Below are positions 1,473 to 36,292 of a stretch of DNA of 64,000 bases, piece by piece. Each line of letters begins with the position of its first letter. Within the stretch, counting starts at the first letter, position 1. Under the pieces are notes generated by a model. The model worked only from the letters and a program-made list of their open reading frames with translations. It ran no database searches and was not told the origin of the DNA. Origin of the DNA: Anaerolineae bacterium. Its GTDB lineage: Bacteria > Chloroflexota > Anaerolineae > VGOG01. Location of the stretch: contig JBAWAP010000280.1 of assembly GCA_049589355.1 (NCBI GenBank), positions 32 to 64,031 on the forward strand. The letters run 5' to 3'. A program made the position numbers and the translations under genes.

Positions 1473-1871
1473 ATGATTGCTCAGTTGGAGATAAACACCA
1501 AGTCGGCTGCAGAGTTGGTGGATATCACGGGAGTAGTGCAGCAAACCGTGAAGGAGAAGGGGATGCAGAGTGGCGTCTGCCACGTCTTCGTGCCGCACAC
1601 TACGGCTGGCCTGACCCTCAATGAAAACTGGGATCCTAGCGTGCGCGGAGATATGTTGATGGAGCTCGATAAGATCGTGCCCTGGCGCGACAACTACCGT
1701 CATGCGGAGGGCAACTCTGCTGCGCACATCAAAGCCAGCCTGATGGGATTTTCCCAAACCCTCCTGGTGGAGGATGGCCGCCTGGTGCTAGGCACCTGGC
1801 AGGGGATCTATCTGGCCGAGTTCGATGGGCCGCGCCGCCGCCGCGTCCTGGCTAAATTGGTGAGTGATTAG
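1473..1871 (+). CDS. yjbQ: YjbQ/UPF0047 family protein (secondary thiamine-phosphate synthase-like)
   Basis: 132-aa ORF; strong family resemblance (..HTTAGLTLNENWDPSVRGDM.., GTWQGIYLAEFDGPR). Confidence 0.8.
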   Translation: MIAQLEINTKSAAELVDITGVVQQTVKEKGMQSGVCHVFVPHTTAGLTLNENWDPSVRGDMLMELDKIVPWRDNYRHAEGNSAAHIKASLMGFSQTLLVEDGRLVLGTWQGIYLAEFDGPRRRRVLAKLVSD

Positions 1872-1872
1872 A

Positions 1873-3726
1873 ATGGACATAACCCAGCGAGTTTTGGATG
1901 GCATTCTACCAAAAGTAGCCAAGCCTGCCCGCTACACCGGCCACGAGTGGAACAGCGTGATCAAGGATTGGGACGAGGTTGATGTCAAGGTGGCCCTGGC
2001 CTATCCGGACATCTACGAAGTGGGCATGTCCAACCTGGGCCTGATGGTCCTCTACGACATCCTGAACAGGGAAGAGGGCGTCCTGGCCGAGCGAGTCTAT
2101 GCACCCTGGATAGACATGGAAGAGGCCATGCGGCGCGCTGGCATCCCCCTCTACAGCCTGGAGTCGCGACGATCCCTGGGCGAATTTGACATAATTGGCT
2201 TCTCGCTGCAGTATGAGCTGAACTACACCAACGTGCTGAACATGCTGGATCTGGCCGGCCTCTCGCCCCTGGCGGCGGAGCGAGGCGACGCGGATCCACT
2301 GATCATTGGAGGGGGTAGTTGTACTTACAACGCCGAGCCTCTGGCCGACTTCTTTGACCTCTTCGCGATCGGGGAGGGGGAAGAAGTACTGTTAGAGTTG
2401 GTACGAGCTTATCGCCGATTGCGGATTGCGGATTGCGGATTGCGGATTGCGAAGGCGGATTTTCTGCGGGAGGCGGCGAAGATAGAGGGCATCTATGTGC
2501 CTAGTCTGTACGATGTTCGCTATCACGACGACGGCACGGTGGCTGCCGTGGAGCCCTTGGTCCCTGAAGCCAAGGTTCGGGTCCGAAAGCGCATCGTGGG
2601 GACTCTGCCCCCTGCGCCAACCAGGCTGGTCGTGCCCTACGTTGGGGTGATACACGACCGTGGCATGATCGAGATCCAGCGGGGCTGTACCCAGGGCTGC
2701 CGCTTCTGCCAGGCGGGCTTCATCTATCGGCCTTTGCGGGAGCGCCCTCTGGAGGAGGTGCTGGAAACGGTGGGTGACATCGTGCAAGAGACGGGCTACG
2801 AGGAGGTGGCCCTGGTTTCCCTGAGCTCCAGCGACCACAGCCAGATCGAGCCCCTGGTGCGACAACTGACCACGCACTATCAGCACCCGCCCTTGGCTGT
2901 TTCCTTGCCCTCCTTGCGCATTGATTCTTTCTCCGTTGAGTTGGCGGAGATGTTCCAGGGGCAGCGCAAGACCGGCCTGACCTTCGCCCCAGAGGCAGGC
3001 AGCCAGCGCCTGCGCGCCGTAATCAACAAGAACGTTACTGAAGAGGACCTGTTGCGCACGGCTGAGGCGGCCTATTCCAGTGGCTGGCGGCGGATCAAGC
3101 TTTACTTCATGGTGGGCCTGCCCACGGAGACTCTGGAGGACGTGGCGGCCATCGTGGATTTGGTGAAGAAGGCGCGGGCTATTGGTCGGCGGCACCAGGG
3201 CAAGAAGGCTCAGGTCAATGTCAGCCTCGGCACCTTTGTGCCCAAGGCTTTCACCCCTTTCCAGTGGCTGCCCCTGGCCGCTGAGGGGAGCCTGGAAGAG
3301 AAACAGGAGCTATTGCGGCGGGGGCTCAGGATGCCCGGCATCAGCTTCAGTTGGCAGGACCCTCGCACCACCTTGCTGGAGGCAGCCCTCTCCCGCGGCG
3401 ACCGGCGGCTGGGCCGGGTCATCCACCGCGCCTGGCAACTAGGGGCCAAATTCGATGCCTGGGACGAGCTTTTCGACGAGGGCCTTTGGTGGCGAGCCTT
3501 CACCGAGGCTGGCCTCGACCCCAACTTCTATGCTCGGAGGGAACGCTCCCTCGACGAGGTGCTCCCCTGGGATCACATTGACGTGGGGGTCAAGAAGGAA
3601 TTCCTGGTCGGAGAGTACCAGCGCAGCCTGTGCGCGGAGGTGAGTCCCGACTGCCGCCAGCATTGCCTCAACTGCGGGATCCTCGATGCCTTCCATTGTT
3701 GCCAGATGAGTAATCAGTTGGGGTAA
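1873..3726 (+). CDS. Radical SAM protein with B12-binding-like N-terminal domain (TIGR03960 family)
   Basis: ORF 1864-3726; ATG at 1873 is the preferred start. Motif CTQGCRFCQAG (CxxxCxxC) and overall TIGR03960-like architecture. Partner TIGR03936 gene at 4824. Confidence 0.8.
   Translation: MDITQRVLDGILPKVAKPARYTGHEWNSVIKDWDEVDVKVALAYPDIYEVGMSNLGLMVLYDILNREEGVLAERVYAPWIDMEEAMRRAGIPLYSLESRRSLGEFDIIGFSLQYELNYTNVLNMLDLAGLSPLAAERGDADPLIIGGGSCTYNAEPLADFFDLFAIGEGEEVLLELVRAYRRLRIADCGLRIAKADFLREAAKIEGIYVPSLYDVRYHDDGTVAAVEPLVPEAKVRVRKRIVGTLPPAPTRLVVPYVGVIHDRGMIEIQRGCTQGCRFCQAGFIYRPLRERPLEEVLETVGDIVQETGYEEVALVSLSSSDHSQIEPLVRQLTTHYQHPPLAVSLPSLRIDSFSVELAEMFQGQRKTGLTFAPEAGSQRLRAVINKNVTEEDLLRTAEAAYSSGWRRIKLYFMVGLPTETLEDVAAIVDLVKKARAIGRRHQGKKAQVNVSLGTFVPKAFTPFQWLPLAAEGSLEEKQELLRRGLRMPGISFSWQDPRTTLLEAALSRGDRRLGRVIHRAWQLGAKFDAWDELFDEGLWWRAFTEAGLDPNFYARRERSLDEVLPWDHIDVGVKKEFLVGEYQRSLCAEVSPDCRQHCLNCGILDAFHCCQMSNQLG
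2417..2451. repeat. Perfect 7-bp tandem repeat (GATTGCG)x5 inside the radical SAM CDS (encodes ..RIADCGLRIAK..)
   Basis: Direct reading; unit length is not a multiple of 3. Confidence 0.9.
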
Positions 3727-5520: not shown

Positions 5521-5705
5521 GTCATTGCGAGTCTTCCATGGCGCATCGCGCCATCCGTAGGGGGCAGAAACTGGCGGGCAGACTTCCGAAGTCTCCGAGA
5601 CTTCGGAAGTCTGGTCGCCCCCCGAGTTTCTGAGTAGCCGAAGGCGAAGCAATCTCCAACCTGGTGGGGGATTGCTTCGGCGCAAAAAGCGCGCCTCGCA
5701 ATGAC
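5521..5705. repeat. MITE-like palindromic element with termini GTCATTGCGAG..CTCGCAATGAC and internal GAAGCAATC/GATTGCTTC palindrome; carries an AGACTTCCGAAGTCT palindrome; flanked by outer IR AGGGCAATCGCAAA/TTTGCGATTGCCCT (5494-5752)
   Basis: Seen directly; related copies at 13181-13260, 22612-22843, 31641-31852. Confidence 0.8.
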
Positions 5706-5845
5706 GGAACGTTGGCTGATCTCACCTGCCGAGCGACTTTGCGATTGCCCTACACTTCGCTCATTCGGCCTTGACAAATAAGGGAAAGGCTAGTATAATC
5801 ACATTTGCGAAATTACTGAGATCGTGCAACCGGGAGGCTAGAGCA

Positions 5846-6157
5846 GTGTACGCTGTTGTTGAGGCGGGCGGGAAGCAATACAAAGTTAGCGCGGGCGATA
5901 TCATAGATGTAGAGAAGGTCCTCTGTGAGGTTGGAGAGAGGATAGAGCTGGGCAGGGTGCTCCTGGTGGCCGATGGTGATGAGGTACGTGTGGGGCAGCC
6001 CACCGTCGAAGGGGCCAAGGTATTGGCCACTGTGGTAGGGCACGGGAAGGACAAGAAAGTCATCATCTTCAAGTACATGCCCAAGGAGCGCTATCGTCGC
6101 AAGAAAGGGCATCGGCAGTCCCATACGCAGTTGAAGATCGAGCAGATCATTGTCTAG
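5846..6157 (+). CDS. rplU: 50S ribosomal protein L21
   Basis: VYAVVEAGGKQYKVSAGDIIDVEK..; GTG start at 5846 with GGGAGG RBS. Confidence 0.9.
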   Translation: MYAVVEAGGKQYKVSAGDIIDVEKVLCEVGERIELGRVLLVADGDEVRVGQPTVEGAKVLATVVGHGKDKKVIIFKYMPKERYRRKKGHRQSHTQLKIEQIIV

Positions 6158-6222
6158 CCCAGGAAACCTGACATAAGTAACTCCTGAAAAGTGGCATTTT
6201 TGGTTACAAACCCAGACCCGAT

Positions 6223-6515
6223 GAATAGGGGATTAGACGATTGACGATTACCGATTGTCGAATGCCGATTGGAAACCAGGAATTGGGAATCGGCAATTGA
6301 AAATCGTCAATCGCCAATTGAATAGGGGATTAGACGATTGGTGATTACCGATTGTCGAATGCCGATTGGAGACCGAGAATTGGGAATCGGCAATTGAAAA
6401 TCGTCAATCGCCAATCGAATAGGGGATTAGACGATTGACGATTACCGATTGTCGAATGCCGATTGGAAACCGAGAATTGGGAATCGGCAATCGAAGATCG
6501 GCAATCGAAGATCGG
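6223..6515. repeat. Three tandem ~97-bp repeats (units start 6223, 6320, 6417) filling the rplU-rpmA intergenic region; rich in CGATTG/CAATCG sub-palindromes; 3' end degenerates into GCAATCGAAGATCG x2 and GAAATGG x2 just before the rpmA RBS
   Basis: Direct alignment of the three units (nearly identical). Confidence 0.9.
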
Positions 6516-6541
6516 AAATGGGAAATGGAGGTGTATTATTT

Positions 6542-6802
6542 ATGGCACACAAAAAGGGGGGCGGGAAGACCCACAACAGTCGAGATAGCCAGTCTAAGCG
6601 CCTGGGCGTGAAGAAGTTTGGCGGCCAGAAGGTGCGACCAGGAAACATCATCGTGCGCCAAAGAGGAACCAAATTCAAGCCCGGCAGCAACGTTGGTTTG
6701 GGCAAGGACTATACTATCTTCGCTATCATTGATGGCTTCGTGAAGTTCGAGCACGGACCACGGGGCAAGAAGATGGTTAGCGTGTATCCAGAAACTTCAT
6801 AG
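6542..6802 (+). CDS. rpmA: 50S ribosomal protein L27
   Basis: [31 protein letters not shown].. classic L27; ATG 6542 preferred over the longer ORF. Confidence 0.95.
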
Positions 6803-6814
6803 AGAGGACAACTG

Positions 6815-7246
6815 ATGAAAAAGGATATTCACCCTGAGTACTATCCTGATGCTAAGGTGATATGCAGTTGTGGCAACACTTTTACTGTCGGCTCAACTAA
6901 GAAGATGATCCGCACGGACGTCTGTTCAGCCTGTCATCCCTTCTTCACTGGCGAGCAGCGCCTGGTGGACGCAGGCGGTCAGGTGGAGCGGTTCATCAGG
7001 CGTTTGGAGAAAGGGCAGGAGATCAGGGCCGAGGAGCAGCCTCGCTCGGAGGCTGAGGGGGAAGAGGCGGAGGCTAAGGAGGTCGAACCGAAAGCAGCCA
7101 GGAAAAAAGTCAAGAAACCAGCAGCAGAGAAGAAGGCGGCTGGTAAAGCCTCCGGGGAGAAATCGGCGAAGAAGGCCTCCAAGGAATCATCGGCCGAAAA
7201 ACCCAAGAAGGCCTCCCAAAAGGCATCTCCTGAGTCAGCCGAGTGA
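6815..7246 (+). CDS. rpmE: 50S ribosomal protein L31 (type A, CxxC..CxxC) with ~70-aa Lys/Ala/Glu-rich C-terminal extension
   Basis: [33 protein letters not shown] then low-complexity tail (..[21 protein letters not shown]..). Confidence 0.9.
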
Positions 7247-7364
7247 ACGATCACTTCGACTGGGCTCAGTACAAGGCTTTTTGCTCTGATGGCTCTTGCA
7301 AATTAGTTGATGGTCGGGGGCAGGTCTCTGTATCTGCCCTTCGGTTTTTTGGAGGAGGTAGACT

Positions 7365-13180: not shown

Positions 13181-13260
13181 GTCATTGCGAGGAGCGTTTT
13201 TTGCGACGAAGCAATCTCCTCCTTGCGGCTTGGGGATTGCTTCGCTTCGCTCGCAATGAC
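13181..13260. repeat. Short MITE copy (GTCATTGCGAG..GAAGCAATC..GATTGCTTC..CTCGCAATGAC); near-identical (reverse-complement) copy incl. flanks at 22760-22865
   Basis: Direct comparison. Confidence 0.85.
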
Positions 13261-15821: not shown

Positions 15822-15825
15822 TTGT

Positions 15826-15859
15826 CCAGTATCCAATATCCAGTATCCAATATCCAGTG
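15826..15859. repeat. 14-bp tandem repeat CCAGTATCCAATAT x2.4 in the divergent ubiA/tlyA promoter region
   Basis: Seen directly. Confidence 0.8.
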
Positions 15860-20541: not shown

Positions 20542-21021
20542 CTACCTTACGCCAATGTTTGATACGATGACAACGATAGCCATTGACGTAGCCAGCACGA
20601 AGACTGTGAAGCCTGCTTTTATGAGCCTGCTTCTGCGCCGAATGACTTTGTTTCTTTCCTGTTCTATTTCATCAACTAGGTCAAGAGAAAAGTGCTTCGT
20701 GACGGGCAGGTAGCCAACGGTGAAAATCACTGAGGCTATGAGGAAAGCAATTGCTGGAAGAGCGACAGTTGCGCCAGCAGCTATTCCGAGAGCATAATTC
20801 TCGGGGAGAATGAAAGCAAGAATACCCAAATAGACAGGTATTGCTCCAGTACTCGTCTTAATCATGAACTGACAGAACTCTCGACCTGTGCTTATCGAGT
20901 CTACAAGCATTGTCTTGCCTGCTTCATAGACTGCTTTGTTATGCGGCGATACTTCTCCGACCTCTACGACCTCGACTTCAGGGGGCTTGTCTAGATTGTC
21001 ATTATGCATTCTCTTGCTCAT
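20542..21021 (-). CDS. Hypothetical membrane protein (159 aa)
   Basis: ORF; AT-richer than surroundings; overlaps upstream Zn-ribbon ORF by 20 bp (operon). Confidence 0.45.
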   Translation of the reverse strand: MSKRMHNDNLDKPPEVEVVEVGEVSPHNKAVYEAGKTMLVDSISTGREFCQFMIKTSTGAIPVYLGILAFILPENYALGIAAGATVALPAIAFLIASVIFTVGYLPVTKHFSLDLVDEIEQERNKVIRRRSRLIKAGFTVFVLATSMAIVVIVSNIGVR

Positions 21022-21307
21022 CGGTTGACTCCGTAACTAGCCCGCTTACTTCTACAGACTCGATTTCTGCGGGGAATCTCTCAGCTATCCAGAAGCGACC
21101 TTGAAAGTCTTCGCCCGTGACAGGACAAGTAAATAGCCTTGTGAAGTATCTTTTGGTCCAACTAGGCTTTTGTGTGCGTTCAGAGTACAGCCCAGACGAA
21201 AGTGTGTTGTAAAGGAAAGCGGAGCGAGTTACCTCTAGCTGATACTCATGAGATTTACCGCATTCAGGACATTCGGTTATTGTCAAGGTGTGACTTCTCG
21301 ATGGCAT
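21002..21307 (-). CDS. Hypothetical zinc-ribbon protein (CPECG..CPVTG)
   Basis: ORF 101 aa with two CxxC/CPxTG pairs. Confidence 0.45.
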   Translation of the reverse strand: MPSRSHTLTITECPECGKSHEYQLEVTRSAFLYNTLSSGLYSERTQKPSWTKRYFTRLFTCPVTGEDFQGRFWIAERFPAEIESVEVSGLVTESTDEQENA

Positions 21308-21646
21308 TTTGGCACACTCCTCCTTGGCACATGGTAAGGGTTTGGAAGCAAGTGCCTACCTATTGAGTCTACGACACGAACTAAGACGCCCGTCTGCCTT
21401 GCGACAGGCCGGCTTCCGTGCTATACCACCCTTTGTCAGGCTGTCGCCACGGTCTGGCCGTGCCTCGATGGTTCCCATCAAACCAGTCGGGGCTTTTCGT
21501 TATTCACCTATTCCTATTGTACTACAGTCCGCGGGTCTGCGCAAGTCCCTCTAGACCCTGGCCTGTCTTTGACTTGTCTGGCGCCCTCCACGCGAAGGAG
21601 CCCTACAGAGGGAATAAGCGCTATCTTGCCTTCATGCGCTTGTCGC

Positions 21647-21686
21647 CGCGGGTTCAAATCCCGTCGCTCCCGCCAGAAGACCGACC
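21647..21686 (+). repeat. Partial duplicate of tRNA-Asp 3' end plus following sequence (direct repeat of 19683-19720, 35/38 identical); att-like site
   Basis: gcgggttcaaatcccgtcgctcccgccagaagaccgacct vs gcgggtccgaatcccgtcgctcccgccagaggaccgacct. Confidence 0.8.
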
Positions 21687-21718
21687 TACTTGAACCAGGC
21701 CGGTTTTTCTTTCTGGGC

Positions 21719-21747
21719 ATTGCAAACTGCGCTCAGGAGTGGTATAA
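21719..21747 (+). promoter_or_regulatory. Consensus sigma70 promoter TTGCAA-17-TATAAT (copy 2)
   Basis: ttgcaaactgcgctcaggagtggtataat. Confidence 0.7.
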
Positions 21748-21914
21748 TAGTCGTGAAATCTTGGTTTTGCAGTTCGGTGAGGGGATTGGGATGGGGGGTG
21801 GGAGAACGCGATTGTCTTTCTCTGGACAAGAGCCGAGTTTTGCAGTATACTAAGCCTCAAATCACTCCCTCCAGCGCACGTTAGCATGGGGGAAAACACG
21901 CGAAGGAGTCAACA

Positions 21915-22565
21915 ATGAAGAAAGCCACATTGCTCGTAGTTCTCATGACACTACTGACTGCTTGTCAGCAGCTTCGGCCGACGCCGGAAATCGTCAGGGT
22001 CACAGTGCTGGTAACCCAACCGCCTCCAAAGCCGATTGAGGTCACGGTGCTTGTGACCCAGCCGCCCCTGCCTACGTATACTCCTTATCCTACTTATACC
22101 CCTTATCCAACTTGCCCACCACCCGCATCCACGCTTCAAGCTACTGAGACGCCAATTCTATCCACGCCCACTTCCCCGCCCACGGGGACACCAGTAGCTA
22201 CTTCCGCTCTTACTTCCACCCTTACTTCCACTCTTACACCCGAATCTCTTGCTGTGCCCATCTGCCCCAATCCTCTAGCCAGGCTCACTTATCCTATGGC
22301 GAACTCCGTTCTGAAGGGGGTTGTGGAAATCAGGGGCTCAGCGCACATTGACAATTTCGACTACTACAAGTTCGAGTTTCGCAGCAAGGGGGCGCTCGAC
22401 TGGGCTTTCGTGCAGAGCTTCAAGGACACGGTGGCTGATGGGCTCCTGGGTGTGTGGGACACTTCGTCTCTTCCCGCCGGCGCTTACAAGTTCCGCCTGG
22501 TCGTGGTGGACAAAATAGGCAATTACCCGAAGCCCTGTGAAGTGGACGTGACCATCGAGCACTGA
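21915..22565 (+). CDS. Hypothetical lipoprotein with Pro/Thr-rich repeats
   Basis: Signal peptide with lipobox LLTAC; internal repeats VTVLVTQPP, PYPTYTPYP. Confidence 0.6.
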   Translation: MKKATLLVVLMTLLTACQQLRPTPEIVRVTVLVTQPPPKPIEVTVLVTQPPLPTYTPYPTYTPYPTCPPPASTLQATETPILSTPTSPPTGTPVATSALTSTLTSTLTPESLAVPICPNPLARLTYPMANSVLKGVVEIRGSAHIDNFDYYKFEFRSKGALDWAFVQSFKDTVADGLLGVWDTSSLPAGAYKFRLVVVDKIGNYPKPCEVDVTIEH

Positions 22566-22611
22566 CCAGCCTCAGTGCCGTCTATTTGATTCTCCAGAAA
22601 GGCTACTCAGG

Positions 22612-22843
22612 CTGTCATTGCGAGTCGGCCATGGCGCGCCCCGCCATTCTAAAGGACAGAAACTTCATCATGTCATTGCGAGGCGACGGTTTTCCGCCGA
22701 AGCAATCCCCAATTAGCTACGTGGAGATTGCTTCGCTCCTGCGGGGCTCGCAATGACAGGTAAGTTTCTGAGTAGCGAAGCGAAGCAATCCCCAAGCCGC
22801 AAGGAGGAGATTGCTTCGTCGCAAAAAACGCTCCTCGCAATGA
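22612..22843. repeat. Composite of three nested/tandem GTCATTGCGAG-type MITE copies
   Basis: GTCATTGCGAG at 22613 and 22670; CTCGCAATGACA at 22747-22758 and 22832-22843. Confidence 0.8.
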
Positions 22844-22881
22844 CACGGGCTGAGCAGTTACCCGGAAAGGAGTGAAAGTAT

Positions 22882-23937
22882 ATGACCCTGGTAGAACGAG
22901 CCGAGGTCGAAGACGCTGTCTTGAAGATGCTCCGCGTTAATATGGGTCTCAAGACCGGTGAGCGGCTGCTCGTCGTCACCGACGTGCCCACCCTGGAACA
23001 ATGGACAACCGGCCCTCAACCCTTCCTGACACTGATGACCCAACGTGCCATGTTGGCCAAAACAGTGGCCGAGGTTGCCCAGGAGCTAATGGCAGGGGTG
23101 GAAGTGGGATTCTTGCCTTTCCCCTCCACGGGGCGCAACGCGGTGGAGCCACCAGCGGAGGTGGCCGAGCGCATGAAGGCTGCCGACGTGGTGATCATCA
23201 TCACCTCGTTCTCCCTCTCGCACACGGATGCTCGGGAAGAGGCGTGTCGCGCCGGGGCGCGCATTGCTTCTATGCCACGCTTTATCCCAGAGATGTTTTA
23301 TCCCGATGGGCCTATGGATGCCGACTACGGCGAGGTCAAACGACTCACCGGGCGCATCGCTGCGGCTCTGACGCCAGCGCGCCAGGTGCATGTCACCTGC
23401 CCGGCCGGGACGGACATCACGTTCAGCATCGAGGGCCGGCCAGGGCAGGTTGACGCCGGGATATACACCCAGCCGGGGATGTGGGGCAATCTGCCCGCGG
23501 GCGAGGCATACTGCGTGCCGCTGGAAGGCACTGGTCAGGGCGTGATCCAGGTCACCCCGGGCTGGCACGCCGATCTCACCGAGCCCATGGCCTTGGTCTT
23601 TGCCAGGGGTGGACTGGTCGAGCTACGGGGTGGCGGGACGGTGGGCGATCAGTTGCGCGACATTCTGCGGCCCGGGAATGATGCCGAGCCTTACAAATCG
23701 CGCCGTAACCTCGGCGAGTTTGGCATCGGCACCAACCCCAATGCCCGGCGGGTGGCCATCACCCTGGAGGCCGAAAAGATCAAGGGCACGGTCCACCTGG
23801 CCACGGGTGACAATGCCCACATGGGCGGCCTAGTCAATGCCGACTATCACCAGGATTTCGTCATCCCCAGGGCGAGTTTCACCCTGGATGGCCAGTTGGC
23901 CATGCAGGATGGGGAGATCGTGCTACGCGATACATGA
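22882..23937 (+). CDS. M29 (aminopeptidase T/S)-like protein, paralog 1
   Basis: ..CPAGTDITFSIEG.., ..LATGDNAHMGG.. resemble M29 family motifs. Confidence 0.5.
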   Translation: MTLVERAEVEDAVLKMLRVNMGLKTGERLLVVTDVPTLEQWTTGPQPFLTLMTQRAMLAKTVAEVAQELMAGVEVGFLPFPSTGRNAVEPPAEVAERMKAADVVIIITSFSLSHTDAREEACRAGARIASMPRFIPEMFYPDGPMDADYGEVKRLTGRIAAALTPARQVHVTCPAGTDITFSIEGRPGQVDAGIYTQPGMWGNLPAGEAYCVPLEGTGQGVIQVTPGWHADLTEPMALVFARGGLVELRGGGTVGDQLRDILRPGNDAEPYKSRRNLGEFGIGTNPNARRVAITLEAEKIKGTVHLATGDNAHMGGLVNADYHQDFVIPRASFTLDGQLAMQDGEIVLRDT

Positions 23938-23988
23938 TGCGTGGTGCATCATGGTACGCAGTGTATGACATTAGAGGGAGGTTATATC

Positions 23989-25053
23989 ATGGAACTGGCA
24001 TTGGGAACCGAACCGACCCGTACCTACCTGGCCTTTGAACTGGCCCGGGGAGCACGCACGTTGATCGAAGACGTTATGCTAACCAAACCCGGCGAGCAGG
24101 TGGTGATTACTGCCGACACGTCCACTGACTGGCGAGTGGTAGAGGCCACGGCTCAAGCGGCCTACGCTGCCAAGGCCACGCCGACCGTGGTGTGGTACGA
24201 GAGCCGGCCTGGACCGGTCATCGAGCCGCCGGGGCCCGTAGCGGGAGCGGTTCGCCAGGCCGACGTGTGGATCGAATACGCTGTGGCCTACTTGCTCCAT
24301 ACCGAGGCCTACAAGCGGGCGCTGGAGCAGGGTTGTCGCTACATCTGTCTGACCGGTATGGATGTAGGAATGATAGTGCGCACTGTTGCCCAGGTGGATT
24401 ATCCGAAGATGATCGAGTTGAGCCATGTGCTGGGAGGCCTGATCGCTCAGGCGGATCACGTCCGGGTCACCAGCCCAGCGGGAACTGACCTGGTGGCCAA
24501 AATGGGCGGACGCAAGATCCGCTACTCCGGCAAGCTGGCCGATACGCCCGGCGAGCCCATCATGCTCGGTGGGCAGATATCGTGGTGTCCACTGGAGGAG
24601 ACCATTGAGGGCACGCTCGTCTTCGATGGGGCGGTCTGGCCGCCCAAGGAACTGGGCCTGCTGCGTTCACCCATCCGGTTGACCCTGGAGAGTGGGCGGG
24701 TGACCAGGGTCGAAGGCAGCAGTGAGGCCAAGGTGCTGGAGCGCTGGCTCGCTTCGATTGGCAATCCCAACATCTGCCGGCTGGCGCACTATTCGCTGGG
24801 CTTTAATCCGGGCGTGACCCGGTGCACCGGTCGCATCGTGGAGGACGAGCGCGTTTTCGGCTGCATCGAGTTCGGCATTGGCAGCCAGGGTGCGCAGATC
24901 GGTGGGTTGACCTGGGACGCGGGCGGGCACACGGATGGCATCGTCCTCAACCCGACGATCTACCTCGATGGCCAGGCTATGGAGGAGGAAGGCCGTTACG
25001 TGCATCCGGGTGTGGTGGCAGCCTGCCGGGAGTTAGGAGTGTCGGGGTATTGA
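23989..25053 (+). CDS. M29 (aminopeptidase T/S)-like protein, paralog 2
   Basis: Parallel motifs (..SPAGTDLVAKMGG.., ..IEFGIGSQG..); ATG 23989 with RBS preferred. Confidence 0.5.
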   Translation: MELALGTEPTRTYLAFELARGARTLIEDVMLTKPGEQVVITADTSTDWRVVEATAQAAYAAKATPTVVWYESRPGPVIEPPGPVAGAVRQADVWIEYAVAYLLHTEAYKRALEQGCRYICLTGMDVGMIVRTVAQVDYPKMIELSHVLGGLIAQADHVRVTSPAGTDLVAKMGGRKIRYSGKLADTPGEPIMLGGQISWCPLEETIEGTLVFDGAVWPPKELGLLRSPIRLTLESGRVTRVEGSSEAKVLERWLASIGNPNICRLAHYSLGFNPGVTRCTGRIVEDERVFGCIEFGIGSQGAQIGGLTWDAGGHTDGIVLNPTIYLDGQAMEEEGRYVHPGVVAACRELGVSGY

Positions 25054-28537: not shown

Positions 28538-31500
28538 ATGAGGACAATCTTCGACAGTTGTGAACCGCGATCCGAGGTTCTGAAAGGCGAGCTGCGAGAC
28601 GAAATCTTCGCGGCCCGGTTGAGAGATGTGATCATCGGCAAGGCCGATCCTGTCTATCAGGACCCTGTTATCTTCTTTGACAACACTTATCCCACCGAGG
28701 GCCTCAAGCTGCTGCTGGACGAAGGGCTGGGACGGCTGACTGGCCTCAAACCGGCCAGTAACGCCATCATCCGCCTAGAGACGGCCTTTGGCGGCGGCAA
28801 GACCCACAATCTAATCGCTCTCTACCATGCAACGATGGGCTATCGGCCCAGCGCCTCGCTGGTGGACACGGCACTCATTCCAATGCCGGGCTCCATCCAG
28901 GTGGTGGGCGTTGTTGGCTCGGACCTGCAGCCCTCGACGGGACTGGCTCACAACGGGTTCAGAACCTACACCCTCTGGGGTGAGATCGTTGCTCAGTTGA
29001 CCGATGACCAGGACCCCGCTCTGGTAGAACAAAGTGAGCGGGACAAGGTCGCCCCGGGCACCGGGCTGTGGGAGGAGTTGATCGGCGACGAACCCATGCT
29101 GATCATGCTGGACGAGATAGCCCGCCACCTGCGGGCAGCCAAGGCAGTGCCTACCACTACTGGCAAGTCGGACCTGGCTGAGCAGACGGTGGCCTTCCTC
29201 ATGTCCCTCTTCGAGTTCGCGGCCAGCAAGGAGCGAGTGGTGGTAGTCTACACCCTGGCCGATCCTCAAGATGCCTTCGGCAAGGAGACCGAGGAGCTGC
29301 GCCAGGAGCTGGCCGAAGCCAGGCGCGTCTCGGCGCGTCAGGAGCGTGTCATCACTCCTACAGGCGAGACCGAGATCTCGGCCATTGTCACCCACCGCCT
29401 GTTCCGACGCATAGATCACGCTGCTGGCCAGGCCACGGCTGCCGCCTACGCTGCCTACCTCAAGATGGCCCTGGATCAGAGCGCCGATCTACCCTCTCGG
29501 GCCGCCAGGGCCGAGTACGCCCAGGAGATGGTCAACGACTATCCCTTCCACCCCGAGCTACTGACTACCCTCAACCGCAAGACCTCGACCATTCCCAACT
29601 TTCAGAAGACCCGTGGCGCGCTGCGGCTGCTGGCCAGGGTGATCCGCCGCCTGTGGGAGAGGCGCCCGCCGGACGCTTACCTGATTCATCCCTATCACCT
29701 CGATCTGGCGGTGGAGGATATCGCTGGTGACTTGACCAGTCGCCTGGAGCGGCCGGCCTTTAAACAGGTGATCGAAGCGGACATCGTCAGTCCCAAGGCT
29801 GGCTCGCCAGCCCATGCCCAGTTGATTGACGTCTCCTGGCTGGAGGCCGGCAAACCGCCTTATGCTCGCCGCATCGCCACCACCGCCTTCTTGCACAGCC
29901 TGACCCAGGGCATCGCCACCGGAGTGGACCCGGCCGACCTGGCTCTGGCCGTGCTCCAGCCTGACGACGACCCCACCATGGTGGCCAAGGCTGCCGAGCG
30001 ACTGTACGACATCGGCTGGTTCTTCGAGTGGGATGGGCGCCGCTACCGCTTCAAGACCGAGCCGTCACTCAACAAGATTGTGACCGATGAGATGGGGTTG
30101 GTGGGACGTACCAAGGCCAAGGCTGAACTGGATGGGCGTATCCGTCAGGTGTGGAAAACGGGTTATTTCAAGCCGGCCTATTTCCCCAGCGAAGCCGGTG
30201 ACGTGGACGACGACGCCGACAAGCCCAAGTTGGTGGTCATCCACTACGACGCCGCCACCAGCAACGCTGGGGCAGCGGCTCCACCCGACCTGGTGCGCAA
30301 GATCTTCGACCACGCCGGGGCACTGCAGGGTTACCGTATCTATAAGAACAACGTCTTGTTCCTGGTGGCCGACGAAGACCAGGTGGAGAACATGGTGCAG
30401 GTAGCGCAGCGGTATCTGGCTATCGGGCGCATCACTGGCGACGCCGAGCGGATGGGGGAGTTCCACGAGGAGCAGCGCAAGAAGCTGAAGAAGATGGGCG
30501 AGGCCGCCGAGTTGGACGTGCGAGTGGCTATCACCAAAGCCTGTAAGTACCTCTACTATCCCAGTGCCGACGCCCCGCAGAAACACAGCAACCTGGCTCG
30601 CGAGACGCTACCCGCCCAGGATCAGGGTGAAGTCAACCAGGACCAGAGCAACGTGGTGCTGCGGGTGCTGAAGCAGTTGCAGAAGGTCCTGACAGCCGAC
30701 GATTCAACCCTGCCAGCCGCCTTTGTCAAGGCCAAAGCCTGGGATACGGGTCAGGCGAGCATGTCCACCGAGGATATGCGCCGTGCCTTCGCCCGCCGCA
30801 TGGGACTGCGCATCCTATTGGACCTGAACCAGCTCAAGAAGACCGTCCGCAACGGCATCAGCCAGGGCATCTGGGTCTACTACGACACGCCCGAACAGAT
30901 TGGCTACGGGCCGGAATCCCCAAGTCCCATGGTGCAGATCAGCGAGGATGTTCTCCTGTACACGCTGGAGGAAGCCAGACGGCTGGGGCTACGTATCAAA
31001 GGGGAGCGGGAAGAGGGCATTGGCCTTGAGGAGACTTGCCCTATCTGCCACCGGCCCGTCAGCCAGTGCATCTGTGGCCAGGCCTGTCCGGTGTGCGGGC
31101 AGGACCCGTGTGTCTGCGGAGTGAGGATCCGACTCCACGCCGATGGCGCGCCAGCCCAGGCTTTCCAGGGACTTCTCGATCAGTGTCACGACCAGGGTGT
31201 GACCAGCTTGGGCCGCCTCTTCGTGCGCATTGAGGGGAGGGACAGAGAGGGAGCGATGGAGGCCCGGGCCATGGGGCTGGCCATCCCCCAGTTGGGCAAG
31301 GGGCAATTCCGTGTAGAGCAGTCCTTCAACGCCGAGTTCGGCGAGGCCGAGTCACTGAGCCTGGTCTTTAACGGTGCTTGGGACCGCTACAAGCGGGTCA
31401 AGCAATTGACTGACGCCTTCGGCCACGAGGCCAGCAAGCTGTTGGCCAGGACCACTCTGCGGGCCGATTTCCCCGATGGCCTGGCCGTGGACTCAGACCA

Positions 31501-31588
31501 GTTCCAGACCATCCACGAGGTGTTCATCACGCTTGGCTTCGGGCACATGGTACTGGATGCGGAGCCGTGGATAGAAGAACACTCGTAG
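28538..31588 (+). CDS. DUF499-family P-loop ATPase (1016 aa), defence-island type
   Basis: N-terminus MRTIFDSCEPRSEVLKGELRDEIFAA.. and ..ETAFGGGKTHNL.. Walker A typical of DUF499; Cys-rich insert CPICHRPVSQCICGQACPVCGQDPCVCG near C-terminus. Confidence 0.7.
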   Translation: MRTIFDSCEPRSEVLKGELRDEIFAARLRDVIIGKADPVYQDPVIFFDNTYPTEGLKLLLDEGLGRLTGLKPASNAIIRLETAFGGGKTHNLIALYHATMGYRPSASLVDTALIPMPGSIQVVGVVGSDLQPSTGLAHNGFRTYTLWGEIVAQLTDDQDPALVEQSERDKVAPGTGLWEELIGDEPMLIMLDEIARHLRAAKAVPTTTGKSDLAEQTVAFLMSLFEFAASKERVVVVYTLADPQDAFGKETEELRQELAEARRVSARQERVITPTGETEISAIVTHRLFRRIDHAAGQATAAAYAAYLKMALDQSADLPSRAARAEYAQEMVNDYPFHPELLTTLNRKTSTIPNFQKTRGALRLLARVIRRLWERRPPDAYLIHPYHLDLAVEDIAGDLTSRLERPAFKQVIEADIVSPKAGSPAHAQLIDVSWLEAGKPPYARRIATTAFLHSLTQGIATGVDPADLALAVLQPDDDPTMVAKAAERLYDIGWFFEWDGRRYRFKTEPSLNKIVTDEMGLVGRTKAKAELDGRIRQVWKTGYFKPAYFPSEAGDVDDDADKPKLVVIHYDAATSNAGAAAPPDLVRKIFDHAGALQGYRIYKNNVLFLVADEDQVENMVQVAQRYLAIGRITGDAERMGEFHEEQRKKLKKMGEAAELDVRVAITKACKYLYYPSADAPQKHSNLARETLPAQDQGEVNQDQSNVVLRVLKQLQKVLTADDSTLPAAFVKAKAWDTGQASMSTEDMRRAFARRMGLRILLDLNQLKKTVRNGISQGIWVYYDTPEQIGYGPESPSPMVQISEDVLLYTLEEARRLGLRIKGEREEGIGLEETCPICHRPVSQCICGQACPVCGQDPCVCGVRIRLHADGAPAQAFQGLLDQCHDQGVTSLGRLFVRIEGRDREGAMEARAMGLAIPQLGKGQFRVEQSFNAEFGEAESLSLVFNGAWDRYKRVKQLTDAFGHEASKLLARTTLRADFPDGLAVDSDQFQTIHEVFITLGFGHMVLDAEPWIEEHS

Positions 31589-31640
31589 TAACGACTTTAG
31601 CTCGACATTGTTAAATTCGCTGTCGTAGCCAACAAAGGAT

Positions 31641-31852
31641 GTCATTGCGAGTCTTCCATGGCGCGGTGCGCCATCCGTAGGGGGCAGAAACTTGGGCGAG
31701 GTTCGTAGTAACAGCTTTAGCTGTCGTTTGGCAGCAAAGGCGACTAAAGTCGTCTACGAACCAAGTTTCTGAGTAGCGCAGCGAAGCAATCTCCCGCCTT
31801 CAAATGCAAGCAACGGTGGAGATTGCTTCGTCGCTGCGCTCCTCGCAATGAC
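31641..31852. repeat. GTCATTGCGAG-type MITE copy carrying an internal GTTCGTAGTAACAGCTTTAGC/GACTAAAGTCGTCTACGAAC palindrome; surrounded by further GTAGTAACGACTTTAGTC-type repeats (31592, 31893, 31935)
   Basis: Seen directly. Confidence 0.8.
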
Positions 31853-31968
31853 ACTTGGCCTGGAATCTAACAATGTCAAGTTAGTCGTTAATTGTGAACG
31901 ACTGAAGTCGTTACTACGGCGTTGCTACAACTTGTAGTAATGACTTTAGTCGTTCAAGGAGACCAAAT

Positions 31969-32898
31969 GTGAAGGCGCTTTCCATCCGCCAACCCTGGGC
32001 TGAGTTGATCCTCCAGGGACGCAAGACTATCGAACTGCGCACCTGGCCGACGAGCTACCGCGGCCGCATCGCCATCCATGCCAGCCAGACAGTTCGAGAG
32101 GAGGCTTGCATTGCCTATGGTCTGGATCCGGCCAGAATGGTGCGCGGCGCGCTGGTGGGCACGGTGGAACTGGTGGACGTTTTGCCGCTGGACGAGGCGG
32201 CATGGGAGGCTCTGCGCGATCAGCACCTGTCGTTGAGTGACTTCCCCGGCCCGATGTTCGGCTGGCGGCTGGAGGCCCCCCAACGCCTGCCCCAGCCGAT
32301 CCCCATGCGCGGCCGCATGAGCCTGTTTAATGTGGCCGATGAGGTGATAGCGGGAAAAGCACCACATTCCCCCCTCTCCCAGGGTTGGGAGAGGGGGCTA
32401 GGGGGTGAGGGCTTTGCGCCGCCCAAGGTGACCTATAACACGCGGGCCGATGCGCCGGCCTACGACCCTGAAAAACCCTTCGAGCTGTGGGTGGTTCCCT
32501 GCGATGGCGGCGACTATGGCCTGGCGTTGTATCAGTGGCCCGTGGCGGCCAATCGTGAGATCCCAAAGCCCCAGCGACTGGTGGAGCTGGCTGGCGATTC
32601 GCTGCGGGCTGTGGCCGACCACGTGCTGGAAGCGTTGCGCAAGAGTGACTATAAGGTGACCGACCTGTCTCACAACCGCCAAAAGCCCTTCCGCCTGGAC
32701 GAAGAGACGGGCTTGCGCCTGGGCCTGCTCTTTCTGGCTGTCAAACCATTGACCCGCATGGATCGCGTCGAGGCCATCTCTAGCGGCTTACGCACCATGC
32801 CGTCCGAGGAAGCCTACTATTGGTTCAGCAAGTGCACCGCTGAGGCGAGCGCTGTCAATGCCCAGCGGGCGCTGCGAATTTTGTTGGCTGGAGAGTGA
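31969..32898 (+). CDS. ASCH (PUA-like) domain protein with ~190-aa uncharacterized C-terminal region
   Basis: ..LSIRQPWAELILQGRKTIELRTW.. ASCH signature; GTG start with AAGGAGA RBS. Confidence 0.7.
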   Translation: MKALSIRQPWAELILQGRKTIELRTWPTSYRGRIAIHASQTVREEACIAYGLDPARMVRGALVGTVELVDVLPLDEAAWEALRDQHLSLSDFPGPMFGWRLEAPQRLPQPIPMRGRMSLFNVADEVIAGKAPHSPLSQGWERGLGGEGFAPPKVTYNTRADAPAYDPEKPFELWVVPCDGGDYGLALYQWPVAANREIPKPQRLVELAGDSLRAVADHVLEALRKSDYKVTDLSHNRQKPFRLDEETGLRLGLLFLAVKPLTRMDRVEAISSGLRTMPSEEAYYWFSKCTAEASAVNAQRALRILLAGE

Positions 32899-32969
32899 AG
32901 TGAAGGGAATGACCTGTCCGCTCCCCTGGAGTGTGAGTAGTGAAGTGTTGTTAAATTAAGGAGGATGAT

Positions 32970-33221
32970 ATGTCTGAGCTTTATTCTGTAACCGGCACCC
33001 TGTCGGATGAGCAAACAGTCATACTGGACAGACCTATTCCTCTGCCCATTGGTCGCGTGCGCTTGACCGTTGAAACGTTGCCCGCTGCCAAGCCTGATAG
33101 AACATTCCTCAGCAAGCTGCAGGCAATTCGCCAGGCTCTGCGCGCTAGCGGCTATCGCCCCTGCACCAGAGAAGAAATTGATGCGCAGACTACGCGCCCG
33201 CTATCGCTTCAGAACCCCTGA
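32970..33221 (+). CDS. Hypothetical small protein (83 aa)
   Basis: ORF with RBS GGAGGA; no family recognised. Confidence 0.4.
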   Translation: MSELYSVTGTLSDEQTVILDRPIPLPIGRVRLTVETLPAAKPDRTFLSKLQAIRQALRASGYRPCTREEIDAQTTRPLSLQNP

Positions 33222-33235
33222 CGCAGGAGGCGCAG

Positions 33236-36200
33236 ATGAACCCACCCCCCACCCTCATCGAATCCTGGCTGCCCTTCGAAGCCATTGGCGCGGAGAGCCA
33301 GCGCGAGCGGGGCGCCAGCAGCGCCTTGCCGCCGCTGTACTTCTTGCACGTCTGGTGGGCGCGCCGCCCGCTGACGGTGAGCCGTGCCGCAGTGCTGGCT
33401 GGCCTCTTGCCAGACTTCCGAAGTCTTGGAGACTTCGGAAGTCTCGACCTGCGCCAGAAGTTCCCTACCGAAGAGGCGTACCGCGCCTGGTTCACCCGCC
33501 TGCTGGGCATCCTGGGTGACCCGGTGACTGGCCGCAAGCTGCTTGCGCGTGCCCGTCAGGTCGGAAAGAAGATCCCCAACCCCTACGAGCACGGCCGGGC
33601 GTTCACGTACAATCCCCCGGCTGAGGAACTGGAAACAATGCTCGACCTGCTGGAGCAGGCATGGGGCACCCGCGAGATCACGGTCATGGATCCCATGGCC
33701 GGCGGAGGCTCCATCCCCTTCGAAGCCCTACGCTATGGCTTCACCGTGCTGGCTGGCGAATTGAACCCGGTCGCCGCGGTTATCCTCAAAGCCACCCTGG
33801 ACTACCCGGCTCGCTTCGGCCCGGCCCTGGCCGACGACATCCGCAGGTGGGGCAAGCGTTGGTACGAGTTGGTCAAACCCAGGCTGGAACCCTACTTCAC
33901 GCCGTTGCCACCAGGGGCTGAAGGCGCTGCCTACCTATGGGCGCGCACCGTCGCCTGCCCGACGACCGGCAAGCTGGTGCCTCTTTCCCCCAACTGGTGG
34001 CTGAGCAAGGGCAGCGACCTCGTGGCTGTGCGCCTGCTCACCAACCCCGCCTGGGACGAGCCACGCTTCGAGATCGTGCGCGGCTCTCCCCTCTCCCTGC
34101 CAGGGAGAGGGGCCGGGGGTGAGGGTTGGACCTTCGACCCCGACGAGGGCACAGTTAGCCGAGGGGTGGGACGCTCTCCCTGGACGGGCGAAGCCATTGA
34201 CGGCGACTACATCAAACGAGAGGCTCAGGCCGGCCGCATGGGGCAGATGCTGTACGCCGTGGCGGTGAAGAAGCCTGGTGGTTTCGACTTCCGCCCACAC
34301 ACAGAGGAGGACCTGGCCGCCGTCCGTCGCGCCGAGGCCGCCTTGGCCGAGAACCTGCCCCGCTGGGAGGCGGCCGGGTTGGTGCCGCGAGAGCCGTTCC
34401 CCGGCGGCAACGACCCCCGCCCACTGCTCTACGGCATGCCCACCTGGGCCGACTTCTTCTCTCCCCGCCAACTCCTCTCCCTGGTCACCTTCCTGGGGGC
34501 GCTGCGGGAGGTGGGTGCGGAGATGCGGCGGGAGATGGATGAGGAGCGGGCCGAGGCGGTGGAGACGTATTTGGCCTTTGCGCTGAACAAATGCCCAAAC
34601 TATAGCTCACGAATGTCGGTATGGCATCCGCTGCGTACCTCAATGGCAAATACCTTCAACCGCCATGACTTTAGCTTTGCTTGGAGTCATGGCGAGTTTG
34701 ATGCTGCTCACAACTTGCTACCCTGGGCTGTCAGCCAGATAGAGGATGCCTACAAAGGCCTGGCCATACTGACTGTTTCTGCCCAGATCCCTCTGTGGGG
34801 CAGTGATGGCGGCTCGCCCGTCGAGCGACTGCAAATCTGGCAGGGCTCAGCCACTGACCTCAGCCAAGTTGAGAGCTGCTCCGTCCACCACATCTGCGTG
34901 GACCCGCCCTACTATGACAACGTCATGTACGCTGAGCTCAGCGACTTCTTCTACGTCTGGCTCAAACGCAGTGTGGGCCACCTGTACCCCGAATTCTTCC
35001 GCGATACTTTGACCAATAAGGACGACGAAGCAGTGGCCAACCCCGCCCGCTTCAAGGCCCTCGCTTCCCCCTCTCCCGCTTCCCCCCTAAGGTTGGGGGG
35101 GACCGTGGGGGGGCGGAGAGGGGGGCAGGGGGTGAGGGACCTGGCCAAACGGGACTACGAACGCAAGATGGCCGCTTGCTTCCGCGAGATGCACCGCACC
35201 TTGCGCGACGACGGCGTGTTGACCGTCATGTTCACCCACAAGCAGGTGGAGGCCTGGGATACCCTGGCCACCGCGCTCATCGGCGCCGGCTTCACCATCA
35301 AAGCCTCCTGGCCTGTCCACACCGAGTCCGAGCACTCCCTGCACCAGGCCCAGAAGAACGCCGCTGCCAGTACCATCCTGCTGGTCTGCCGCAAACGAGC
35401 AGACAAGGAGACAAGGGGACAAGGAGACAGAGAGACAATCTCCGTGTCTCCCCCTCACCTTGTCTCCCCCTCTCAAGTGTGGTGGGATGACATCAAGGGC
35501 CGGGTGCGGCAGGTGGCACGGGAGAAGGCGGCTGAGTTCGCTGAACAGGGTGTCAGCGGGGTGGACCTGTACATCAGCACCTTCGGCCCTGTCCTGTCTG
35601 TCATCTCCGAGCGCTGGCCGGTGCTGACCAGCGAGGTGGATGAAAAGACAGGCCAGCCTAAGCCCCTACGCCCCGAAACCGCCCTTGACCTGGCCCGCGA
35701 GGAGGTCATCGCCCTGCGCAAGCGAGGACTGCTGCTGGGACGGGATATCCAGTTCGACCCCGTCACCGACTGGTACCTGATGGCCTGGGATGCCTTCAAA
35801 GCCGAGGAGTTCCCCGCCGACGAGGCGCGCAAGCTGGCCATCGCCCTGGGGTTGGACATCGAGGAGGACCTGGTGCGGCGCAAGCGGGTCATCGGCAAGA
35901 AGGGCAGCTTTGTGGTGCTGCAACAGCCCAAACACCGCCGCCGCAAGCACCTGGCCGACCCTGAGGCTGTGGTCTTCGACACCCTCCTGGACGCCGCCCA
36001 CGCCGCCATGCTCATCTACCACGAAGATGGGCCACTGGCCTGTGAAAGCTTCCTCAAGCGCACTGGCCTGCTGACCGACAGCACCTTCAAGGCCTGCCTC
36101 CAGGCCCTGCTCAACGCCATCCCCCGCACCCAGATCAAGGGCAGATTCGTCCGCCCCGAAGCCGACCTCCTGGAGCGTCTGCGAATGGCCTTCTTTGAGG

Positions 36201-36265: not shown

Positions 36266-36292
36266 ATCGAACCGAGAAAGGAGTTCACACTG

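Follow-up and report, generated by a model that had tools for sequence, protein, structure and literature searches.

Tandem hairpin repeats between rplU and rpmA of an Anaerolineae bacterium are probably the remnant of a decayed CRISPR array

The rplU-rpmA spacer of an Anaerolineae bacterium (contig JBAWAP010000280.1, assembly GCA_049589355.1), which lies between the genes for ribosomal proteins L21 and L27, is largely filled by three copies of a 97-bp tandem repeat. We analyzed a 64-kb stretch of this contig (64,000 nucleotides, here called the window, whose positions are used unless another locus is named) and consider it probable that the block is the decayed remnant of a CRISPR array inside the rplU-rpmA-rpmE unit, co-transcribed with that unit and tolerated as a largely neutral relic. 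The best explanation of its makeup is that it combines two known kinds of sequence, a degenerate CRISPR array and a heptamer simple-sequence repeat. An original prediction, made from the bare sequence, had described 385 bp of three near-identical units between two genes that normally lie near one another. Both the units and the usual proximity of the genes were borne out. Tandem Repeats Finder (TRF) reports a repeat at 6222 to 6507 (period 97, 2.9 copies, 93% matches, no indels, score 509), and a repeat search returned three in-register copies starting at 6223, 6320, and 6417 (89 to 94% identical to the first); the units are 94 to 96% alike, with a mean column identity of 96%. Across 76 relatives the median rplU-rpmA gap is 28 nt, versus 384 nt in the window (6158 to 6541). 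Of these 384 nt, ~291 nt are repeat, and positions 6158 to 6221 are not. What the prediction overlooked is that each unit starts with a sequence recognizable by homology as the 3′ half of a CRISPR repeat, which identifies the block as an array trailer.

Evidence for this origin begins with a single repeat-like sequence of 36 nt at 6203 to 6238 (GTTACAAACCCAGACCCGATGAATAGGGGATTAGAC), a 24-nt core of which matches the CRISPR repeat of related loci exactly, is unique in the window, and is not expected there even once by chance. Because intact arrays occupy the same site in relatives, we read these 36 nt as one copy of their repeat. We compared the window with related loci and contigs, coded L001 to L105. 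Against the repeat of L098 (GTTGCAAACCCAGACCCGATGAATAGGGGATTGAAAC), the window copy differs at position 4 and in its last 9 nt (GATTGAAAC replaced by GATTAGAC) and is one base shorter. Its 3′ end carries a terminal-repeat polymorphism, ATTGAAAC having become ATTAGAC, and the same kind of change, from ATTGAAAC to AT(T/G)AGAC with the loss of one base, is found in the terminal repeats of the window, L082, L089, and L097. The repeat ends in ...GGGGATTAGAC in the window, in ...GGGGATGAGAC in the terminal repeats of L082 and L089, and in ...GGGATTAGAC in L097, while internal repeats of the relatives end in ...GGGGATTGAAAC. Beyond the repeat itself, the window shares the junction, the trailer hairpin, and the ribosome-binding site with the loci of L082, L089, L097, and L098. 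Rfam gives a weak match to CRISPR-DR32 at the same 36 nt (18 bits, below the gathering score).

The relatives were recovered by scanning metagenome contigs with an invariant 21-mer of the repeat unit, which matched eight contigs, including that of the close relative L082, and by collecting contigs that encode proteins homologous to the L21 of the window. Relatives with an array or a relic have rplU sequences 84 to 96% identical to that of the window at the nucleotide level. L082, at 96% nucleotide identity across rplU and 91% across rpmA-rpmE, shows what an intact locus looks like: the rplU stop codon is followed by the junction (as at 6158 to 6202 of the window), a 221-nt purine-rich leader, an array, a trailer, and the rpmA ribosome-binding site. 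The array consists of five perfect 37-nt repeats (GTTAACAACCCAGACCCGATGAATAGGGGATTGAAAC), five unique spacers of 36 to 39 nt, and a degenerate last repeat, and the trailer of two hairpin units, which differ in their loops, with a 17-nt partial repeat between them. The same array, with five perfect repeats and one degenerate repeat, is present in L089, an independent assembly from the European Nucleotide Archive. L098 and L099, from two other Joint Genome Institute metagenomes, have rplU sequences 87 to 88% identical to that of the window and the same junction. In L098 a 220-nt leader (L098 2495 to 2713), 68% identical to the leader of L082, precedes at least nine repeats whose spacers are entirely different from those of L082; the contigs of L098 and L099 both end within the array. 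The relatives thus have three or more repeats with unique spacers, as expected of functional arrays; their spacers, 35 to 39 nt long, are all different, and none is common to L082 and L098.

The placement of these arrays is as consistent as their structure. A near-identical 45-nt junction with a leader of ~220 nt directly 3′ of it is found in L082, L089, L098, and L099, and the first 28 to 31 nt of the junction are kept in L091 and L097 as well. The arrays are co-oriented with the operon and close with a degenerate terminal repeat, followed by one or two hairpins built from 7-nt subrepeats. With the leader on the rplU side, the degenerate repeat on the rpmA side, and repeats ending in ATTGAAAC, the arrays would be read from the plus strand. 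We take ATTGAAAC to be the usual 8-nt 5′ handle of Cas6-processed CRISPR RNAs (crRNAs). The array embedded in the rplU-rpmA operon of these sister lineages is apparently active. A literature search found nothing relevant on a CRISPR array in or next to an rplU-rpmA operon. The motif GAGATGCTCGGAA occurs twice in each of the two leaders, of L082 and L098, inside two blocks conserved between the lineages, and could be a binding or processing site.

The window, in turn, keeps only the junction, one repeat with the terminal polymorphism, and the trailer; the leader and all spacers are gone. A single near-full repeat and two 17-nt fragments (6319 to 6335 and 6416 to 6432) remain, the sequences between them are three copies of one 80-nt hairpin, and the junction directly adjoins the repeat where relatives have the 220-nt leader. 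A Pfam scan of 36 open reading frames (ORFs) of the window found no Cas family. Protospacer searches returned no exact match in IMG/VR for five spacer 22-mers and no BLAST match in cultured phages for 24 spacers, viruses of these uncultured Anaerolineae being probably poorly sampled, and a scan with the repeat core was likewise negative. In having one surviving repeat with substitutions and a 1-nt 3′ deletion, as in terminal repeats, and intact orthologous arrays at the same site in relatives, the block resembles collapsed or degenerate orphan arrays. It differs from them in that the leader is also missing, that the remnant lies between two co-transcribed ribosomal-protein genes, and that the 3′ half of the terminal repeat has been re-amplified together with an 80-nt hairpin, giving a period-97 pseudo-array with identical "spacers."

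Recombination between repeats has been described as a way in which arrays shrink to a lone terminal repeat, and polymorphism at the 3′ end of terminal repeats is described as well (PMC8047081). We propose that the array of the window collapsed by such recombination, together with loss of its leader, and that unequal crossing-over or replication slippage later brought the segment comprising the terminal-repeat 3′ half and the hairpin to three copies, in a lineage that may be prone to heptamer slippage. The present block would be unable to work as a CRISPR array. Its stem-loops would leave the rpmA ribosome-binding site free and would be at most passive, stable RNA hairpins, tolerated rather than required.

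The amplified unit has two parts. At its head stand 17 unpaired nt (TGAATAGGGGATTAGAC), by homology the 3′ half of the terminal repeat, and 3′ of these lies an imperfect hairpin of 29 bp. The hairpin-forming potential seen by the original prediction is real: RNA of the spacer (388 nt as folded) reaches −148.6 kcal/mol (z = −10.1, with 0 of 100 shuffles folding as well), and single units reach −37 to −39 kcal/mol (z ~−5), with −37.7 kcal/mol (z = −5.8) for the hairpin of unit 1 and −39.3 kcal/mol for that of unit 3, whose centroid structure leaves the ribosome-binding site unpaired. The arms are runs of 7-nt subrepeats, (NNCGATT)×5 on the left and (AATCGNN)×5 on the right, and the right arm of unit 3 is the AATCGNN run that adjoins the rpmA ribosome-binding site, as in L082, L097, and L091. 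The units are indeed packed with CGATTG/CAATCG hexamers, as had been noted (14 of the 40 sites in the window fall in 6238 to 6507), but these are not self-complementary as had been stated; a CGATTG of the left arm pairs with a CAATCG of the right arm. CGATTNNCGATT is found eight times in the window, versus 0.13 expected, and every occurrence lies within the spacer. Self-matching is 0.58, 0.55, and 0.47 at lags of 7, 14, and 21, versus ~0.15 to 0.2 at lags between multiples of 7, and low-threshold TRF finds period-7 and period-14 subarrays inside every unit. This dominant 7-nt periodicity marks the block as a heptanucleotide simple-sequence repeat.

Repeats of heptanucleotides are known from many bacteria as a class prone to slippage (PMC4679880, PMC2700814). 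Cyanobacterial short tandemly repeated repetitive (STRR)-type sequences, the TAACTGA repeats of Beggiatoaceae, and Geobacter elements share with the block a subrepeat period of 7, an intergenic location that is often just 5′ of start codons, a length that varies between relatives, and the existence of relatives with shorter, repeat-free intergenic regions (PMC4679880, PMC2700814). The block of the window differs from them in that its opposed runs, NNCGATT followed by AATCGNN, form a long hairpin that has become the unit of a 97-bp repeat seeded on a CRISPR fragment.

Heptamer repeats also occur elsewhere in the window, where exact heptamer arrays of at least 2.5 copies number 2, versus 0.0 expected from Markov shuffles. 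A perfect GATTGCG×5 (2417 to 2451) lies inside a radical-SAM/B12-binding ORF (1864 to 3726), where it encodes ...RLRIADCGLRIAK and adds seven residues relative to the L100 orthologue; the L089 version has diverged. Coding sequence here tolerates a heptamer repeat in multiples of three units. Further period-7 arrays are TCCAATA (15825 to 15858), AAAGTTC (53088 to 53123), ACGTGAA (53571 to 53599), and GAGTAAC (60330 to 60362). Among relatives, TTGGACN heptamers stand 5′ of the rpmA ribosome-binding site in L090, L092, and L100. L100 also has a CGATT/AATCG heptamer hairpin 3′ of the radical-SAM gene (L100 8085 to 8155) and four tandem ~120-bp copies that include the 5′ end of a DUF2344 gene (L100 8190 to 8600).

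Comparison of units across lineages suggests that the amplification is recent, as the original prediction had offered among its explanations. All units of the window share ATTACC and ...ATTAGAC, whereas L082 has ATTGCC and ...ATGAGAC and the units of L097 also lack the derived bases; these shared derived bases indicate that the copies were made or homogenized after the lineages split. In an alignment of the window, L082, and L097, units 2 and 3 of the window correspond to units 1 and 2 of the other two, leaving unit 1 of the window as an extra copy, and unit 2 is also orthologous to trailer unit 1 of L089. Unit number varies between lineages, three in the window and two in L082 and L097. L097 represents an independent state of decay, retaining a single degenerate repeat and one partial repeat besides two hairpin units and an odd insert of 72 nt.

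Relatives without the repeats show how dispensable they are. In L091, whose rplU is 93% identical to that of the window, the spacer is 75 nt long; it retains 28 nt from the start of the junction as well as the final AATCGNN heptamers, and it has the look of a CRISPR cassette shortened by deletion. In the more distant L001 the spacer measures 26 nt, and promoter and ribosome-binding site are the same. Operon structure is unchanged in both, the very outcome that the original prediction had named as speaking for neutral amplification rather than function. On a neighbor-joining tree of rplU nucleotide sequences, which are short and give low resolution, lineages with an array or a relic (the window, L082/L089, L098/L099, and L097) are spread across the clade, with lineages that carry a HEAT-repeat gene (L090, L092, and L096) and L091 nested among them. 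This spread implies that the array is old in the clade and that the spacer is a hot spot with exchangeable cargo, and the departure of cargo distribution from the rplU tree suggests cassette exchange at this hot spot. The genes for HEAT-repeat proteins between rplU and rpmA lie at L090 429 to 950, L092 743 to 1742, and L096 482 to 1464 and encode 146 or 233 aa, the latter accompanied by a 61-aa ORF. The more distant L100 to L105 have a gene for a retropepsin-like Asp protease in the spacer (in L100, 10313 to 11076, 119 aa plus a 40-aa ORF).

Several points weigh against the interpretation of the block as a neutral relic. Recombination between repeats does not by itself explain the loss of the leader, so a second deletion is needed, for which the TTTTTG microhomology at both ends of the leader is only suggestive. 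We infer both co-transcription and absence of function from sequence only, and the repeat copy number depends on a short-read metagenome assembly. Trailer hairpins persist 3′ of the terminal repeat in four lineages (the window, L082/L089, L097, and the L091 remnant). The loop of hairpin unit 2 is identical at 28 of 30 positions between L082 and L097, which hints at constraint, and four of seven variant hairpin cells keep their pairing through G-U, which is compatible with weak selection at the RNA level. At the extremes (L097 versus the others), the hairpin-bearing lineages have rplU sequences that are only ~84 to 86% identical.

The partial repeat and hairpin could instead be a selected RNA module, a functional end-piece of the array that was kept and multiplied in the window as a stabilizer or insulator, an explanation that we regard as unlikely. 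In one version, cleavage within or close to the terminal repeat, by Cas6 or a different RNase, places the strong stem-loop near the new 5′ end of the rpmA-rpmE mRNA, which it protects; in another, the hairpin blocks 3′-exonucleases on behalf of the upstream RNA, like the repetitive extragenic palindromic (REP) sequences and bacterial interspersed mosaic elements (BIMEs) of Escherichia coli. Hairpin units are kept beside the terminal repeat in the window, L082, L089, and L097, and in every lineage the hairpin stops 15 to 25 nt 5′ of a free ribosome-binding site. Moreover, RNA of the block is probably made, since no terminator lies between rplU and rpmA. However, L091, L001, and other cassette types do without hairpins, and lineages with HEAT-repeat or Asp protease genes have unrelated sequence before the same ribosome-binding site. 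The arms of L082 and L097 differ by whole heptamers on both sides with pairing kept, and an AC-to-GT change in unit 2 of the window yields two G-U pairs, on plus-strand RNA only. Against this, inverted runs of a single heptamer family pair automatically, and among 29 pairs in five closely related sequences, with 97.7% of cells paired, none has changed on both sides; the covariation score in this set is not above that of shuffles. The covariation check proposed with the original prediction thus gave no sign of compensatory change. The version that invokes Cas6 also meets a terminal repeat mutated exactly at the expected Cas6 cut site, and no cas6 gene is known for the genome of the window. We favor the relic over a stabilizing module because double compensatory changes are absent from the five sequences, pairing is automatic, some relatives are free of hairpins, and heptamer repeats are freely made.

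A CRISPR-derived regulatory or decoy RNA seems very improbable. Here the lone repeat and the two partial repeats would give crRNA-like RNAs or solitary Cas-binding units, comparable to mini-array crlRNAs, CreA, and repeat mimics. Regulatory roles have been documented for stand-alone and degenerate repeats (bioRxiv 10.1101/2023.03.03.530964, also PMC10120712; PMC10651486), and Cas proteins may be present given an intact second array at 31 to 957. Yet the repeat of that array is a different one (GTTGCAGCCC...CTGAAAG), just 17 nt of the rplU-rpmA repeat are reiterated, and the 80-nt "spacers," identical and self-complementary, would make poor guides. The block resembles mini-arrays with crlRNAs, CreA, and solitary Racr units in being an isolated or degenerate repeat outside a normal array (10.1101/2023.03.03.530964; PMC10651486). 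Those elements, however, sit in cas loci or phages rather than in ribosomal operons and have a short, partially complementary pseudo-spacer or none, whereas the inter-repeat sequence of the window is an 80-nt self-complementary hairpin with no cas genes or toxin-like ORF nearby.

The second array lies on the plus strand at the start of the contig and has 12 perfect 37-nt repeats (GTTGCAGCCCATTCGATCCGACACAGGATACTGAAAG) with spacers of 35 to 40 nt and a degenerate terminal repeat at 921 to 957. Its position at the contig edge points to cas genes outside the contig. One of its spacers (594 to 623) is duplicated in the first 30 nt of the window, through either a spacer duplication or an assembly loop, and its trailer (957 to 985) holds a small GATTGAA-A-TTCAATC palindrome.

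The original prediction had also offered a structured leader or an autoregulatory protein-binding array, in which L21, L27, or another protein would bind the hairpins or the heptamer DNA and control rpmA. The block does lie directly 5′ of the rpmA ribosome-binding site, its structure is repeated and ordered, and work on other bacteria has put forward heptamer direct repeats as protein or RNA regulatory sites (PMC4679880, PMC2700814). Even so, we consider such regulation extremely improbable. The element is absent from nearly all relatives, including L091, and repeat-free L091 and L001 keep promoter, ribosome-binding site, and gene order; an origin as a CRISPR trailer explains the block without regulation. 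No Rfam family, the L21 leader included, supports a structured leader, and the only gathering-score hits in the window are tmRNA and one tRNA. At E ≤ 10 the spacer yields sub-threshold microRNA-like hairpin noise (best 26 bits versus a threshold of 60) and weak CRISPR-DR hits. We also rejected the junction (TAACTCC) as a long-range anti-Shine-Dalgarno sequence for rpmA, its duplex energies with the ribosome-binding site being no better than those of shuffled junctions (p ~0.06 in the window, 0.28 to 0.82 in relatives).

In Bacillota, a ysxB/prp gene lies between rplU and rpmA, and an L21 leader known to Rfam accompanies the rplU-rpmA operon. The block of the window is likewise extra sequence at this operon. 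It differs from the L21 leader in having no Rfam match at or near the gathering score, and from ysxB/prp in that the spacer holds no credible ORF and L27 starts with MAHKKGGG, with no cleavable N-terminal extension.

Insertion of a mobile palindromic element unrelated to CRISPR, such as a miniature inverted-repeat transposable element (MITE) or a REP-like sequence, is also highly doubtful. The genome does contain a dispersed ~80-nt nested-palindrome element, with at least four copies in the window (5636 to 5715, 13181 to 13260, 22672 to 22757, and 22776 to 22844), and CGATTG-type inverted heptamer arrays occur in the unrelated contigs L083 to L088. In contrast, no second copy of the 97-nt unit was found in the window or in the first 80 related loci (L001 to L080), so the many copies expected of a dispersed palindromic element (REP/BIME, MITE) are missing from this set. 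Neither terminal inverted repeats nor a target duplication is evident, and the units start with terminal-repeat sequence and are orthologous to the trailers of L082, L089, and L097. The intercistronic REP/BIME hairpins of enterobacteria are imperfect palindromes between operon genes that are transcribed, occur in tandem, and could stabilize adjacent mRNA. Tandem imperfect palindromes between genes of one operon are what the block has in common with them. It differs in that its unit is not dispersed and its origin can be traced to a CRISPR trailer; no REP consensus or association with a REP-associated tyrosine transposase (RAYT) is known for it.

The dispersed element reads GTCATTGCGAG...CGAAGCAATC...GATTGCTTCG...CTCGCAATGAC, and one copy lies just 5′ of the rplU promoter, as also in L082 and L089. 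Between this copy and the DUF2344 gene, the window has a 104-nt insertion relative to L082/L089 (5532 to 5635), which contains a 23-bp near-perfect palindrome (5573 to 5619). L083 to L088 are high-GC metagenome contigs in which the exact 21-mer CGATTGTCGAATGCCGATTGG lies within intergenic (NNCGATT)n...(AATCGNN)n inverted arrays, for example at L084 1630 to 1720, between two microcompartment shell genes, and at L088 4450 to 4580. The CGATT heptamer family seems, from these matches, to be widespread beyond Chloroflexota.

The features of the rplU-rpmA-rpmE unit are collected in Table 1. L098 has the perfect rplU promoter at the corresponding place, and L001, L082, L089, and L091 conserve it. Consensus scans found no second promoter-like site on the plus strand, no terminator-like site between rplU and rpmA, and none before 7316; these calls are compatible with one transcript and do not amount to proof. 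The block would then be transcribed from the promoter at 5771 to 5799 as an untranslated internal spacer of the operon mRNA. The GGAGG of rpmA stands 10 nt 5′ of the ATG, the last 97-bp unit stops ~13 nt earlier, and GGAGGTG before rpmA is conserved in L001, L082, L091, and L097. We rejected small ORFs in the spacer, which are merely repeat-derived frames of 35 to 58 aa on both strands, and a 117-aa frame that extends rpmA spuriously at its 5′ end. In other phyla, long gaps between rplU and rpmA were discarded as independent cases, being Lys/Ala-rich C-terminal tails of L21.

Table 1. Features of the rplU-rpmA-rpmE unit in the window
Feature	Coordinates	Strand	Basis
rplU operon promoter, perfect TTGACA-17 nt-TATAAT	5771..5799	+	consensus scan
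rplU (ribosomal protein L21), GTG start	5846..6157	+	
45-nt junction, precedes CRISPR leader in relatives	6158..6202	+	
Lone relic CRISPR repeat, 36 nt	6203..6238	+	homology to relatives' repeats
Unit 1: 17-nt 3′ part of relic repeat (6222-6238) and 80-nt heptamer-built hairpin (6239-6318)	6222..6318	+	
Unit 2: 17-nt partial repeat (6319-6335) and 80-nt hairpin (6336-6415)	6319..6415	+	
Unit 3: 17-nt partial repeat (6416-6432) and hairpin (6433-~6514)	6416..6514	+	
rpmA ribosome-binding site, GGAGG	6527..6531	+	read from sequence
rpmA (L27), ATG start at 6542	6542..6802	+	
rpmE (L31), last gene of unit	6815..7246	+	
First terminator-like hairpin with T-run 3′ of rplU promoter	7316..7341	+	consensus scan

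Two other regions of the window drew attention. Positions 28538 to 40819 form a probable defense island, with a DUF499 protein (1016 aa), an ASCH/DUF7680 protein, a DUF1156 protein (1009 aa), two small ORFs (one retropepsin-like), and an SNF2/ResIII helicase (1246 aa). At 20542 to 25053 are five consecutive ORFs (101 to 370 aa) with no Pfam match, one of which (21915 to 22565) has Pro/Thr-rich tandem repeats.

As a fossil, the block of the window offers a worked example of array collapse followed by re-amplification of the trailer and illustrates how a terminal repeat can give rise to a pseudo-array whose "spacers" are identical. The alternative cargo of the spacer (HEAT-repeat genes, a retropepsin-like protease, or nothing) marks a recombination hot spot between core genes. 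By itself the feature of the window is moderately interesting; what deserves follow-up is the embedded array of the sister lineages, intact in at least three lineages from independent assemblies and set in the sense orientation, with neither a terminator nor a second promoter predicted, inside an essential ribosomal-protein operon that is highly expressed. A joint interpretation, which we hold to be rather doubtful, would make the array of the clade an integral, co-oriented part of the operon, read through from the rplU promoter, which would couple the supply of crRNA to ribosome synthesis. Cutting of the pre-crRNA would separate rplU from the rpmA-rpmE mRNA, and the terminal-repeat half with its heptamer hairpin would be a selected module that defines and protects the downstream 5′ end and was kept and multiplied in the window. 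The embedded arrays raise the question of whether pre-crRNA is made as part of a ribosomal-protein mRNA, how rpmA is expressed 3′ of an array that is cut up, and whether coupling of array and operon benefits defense.

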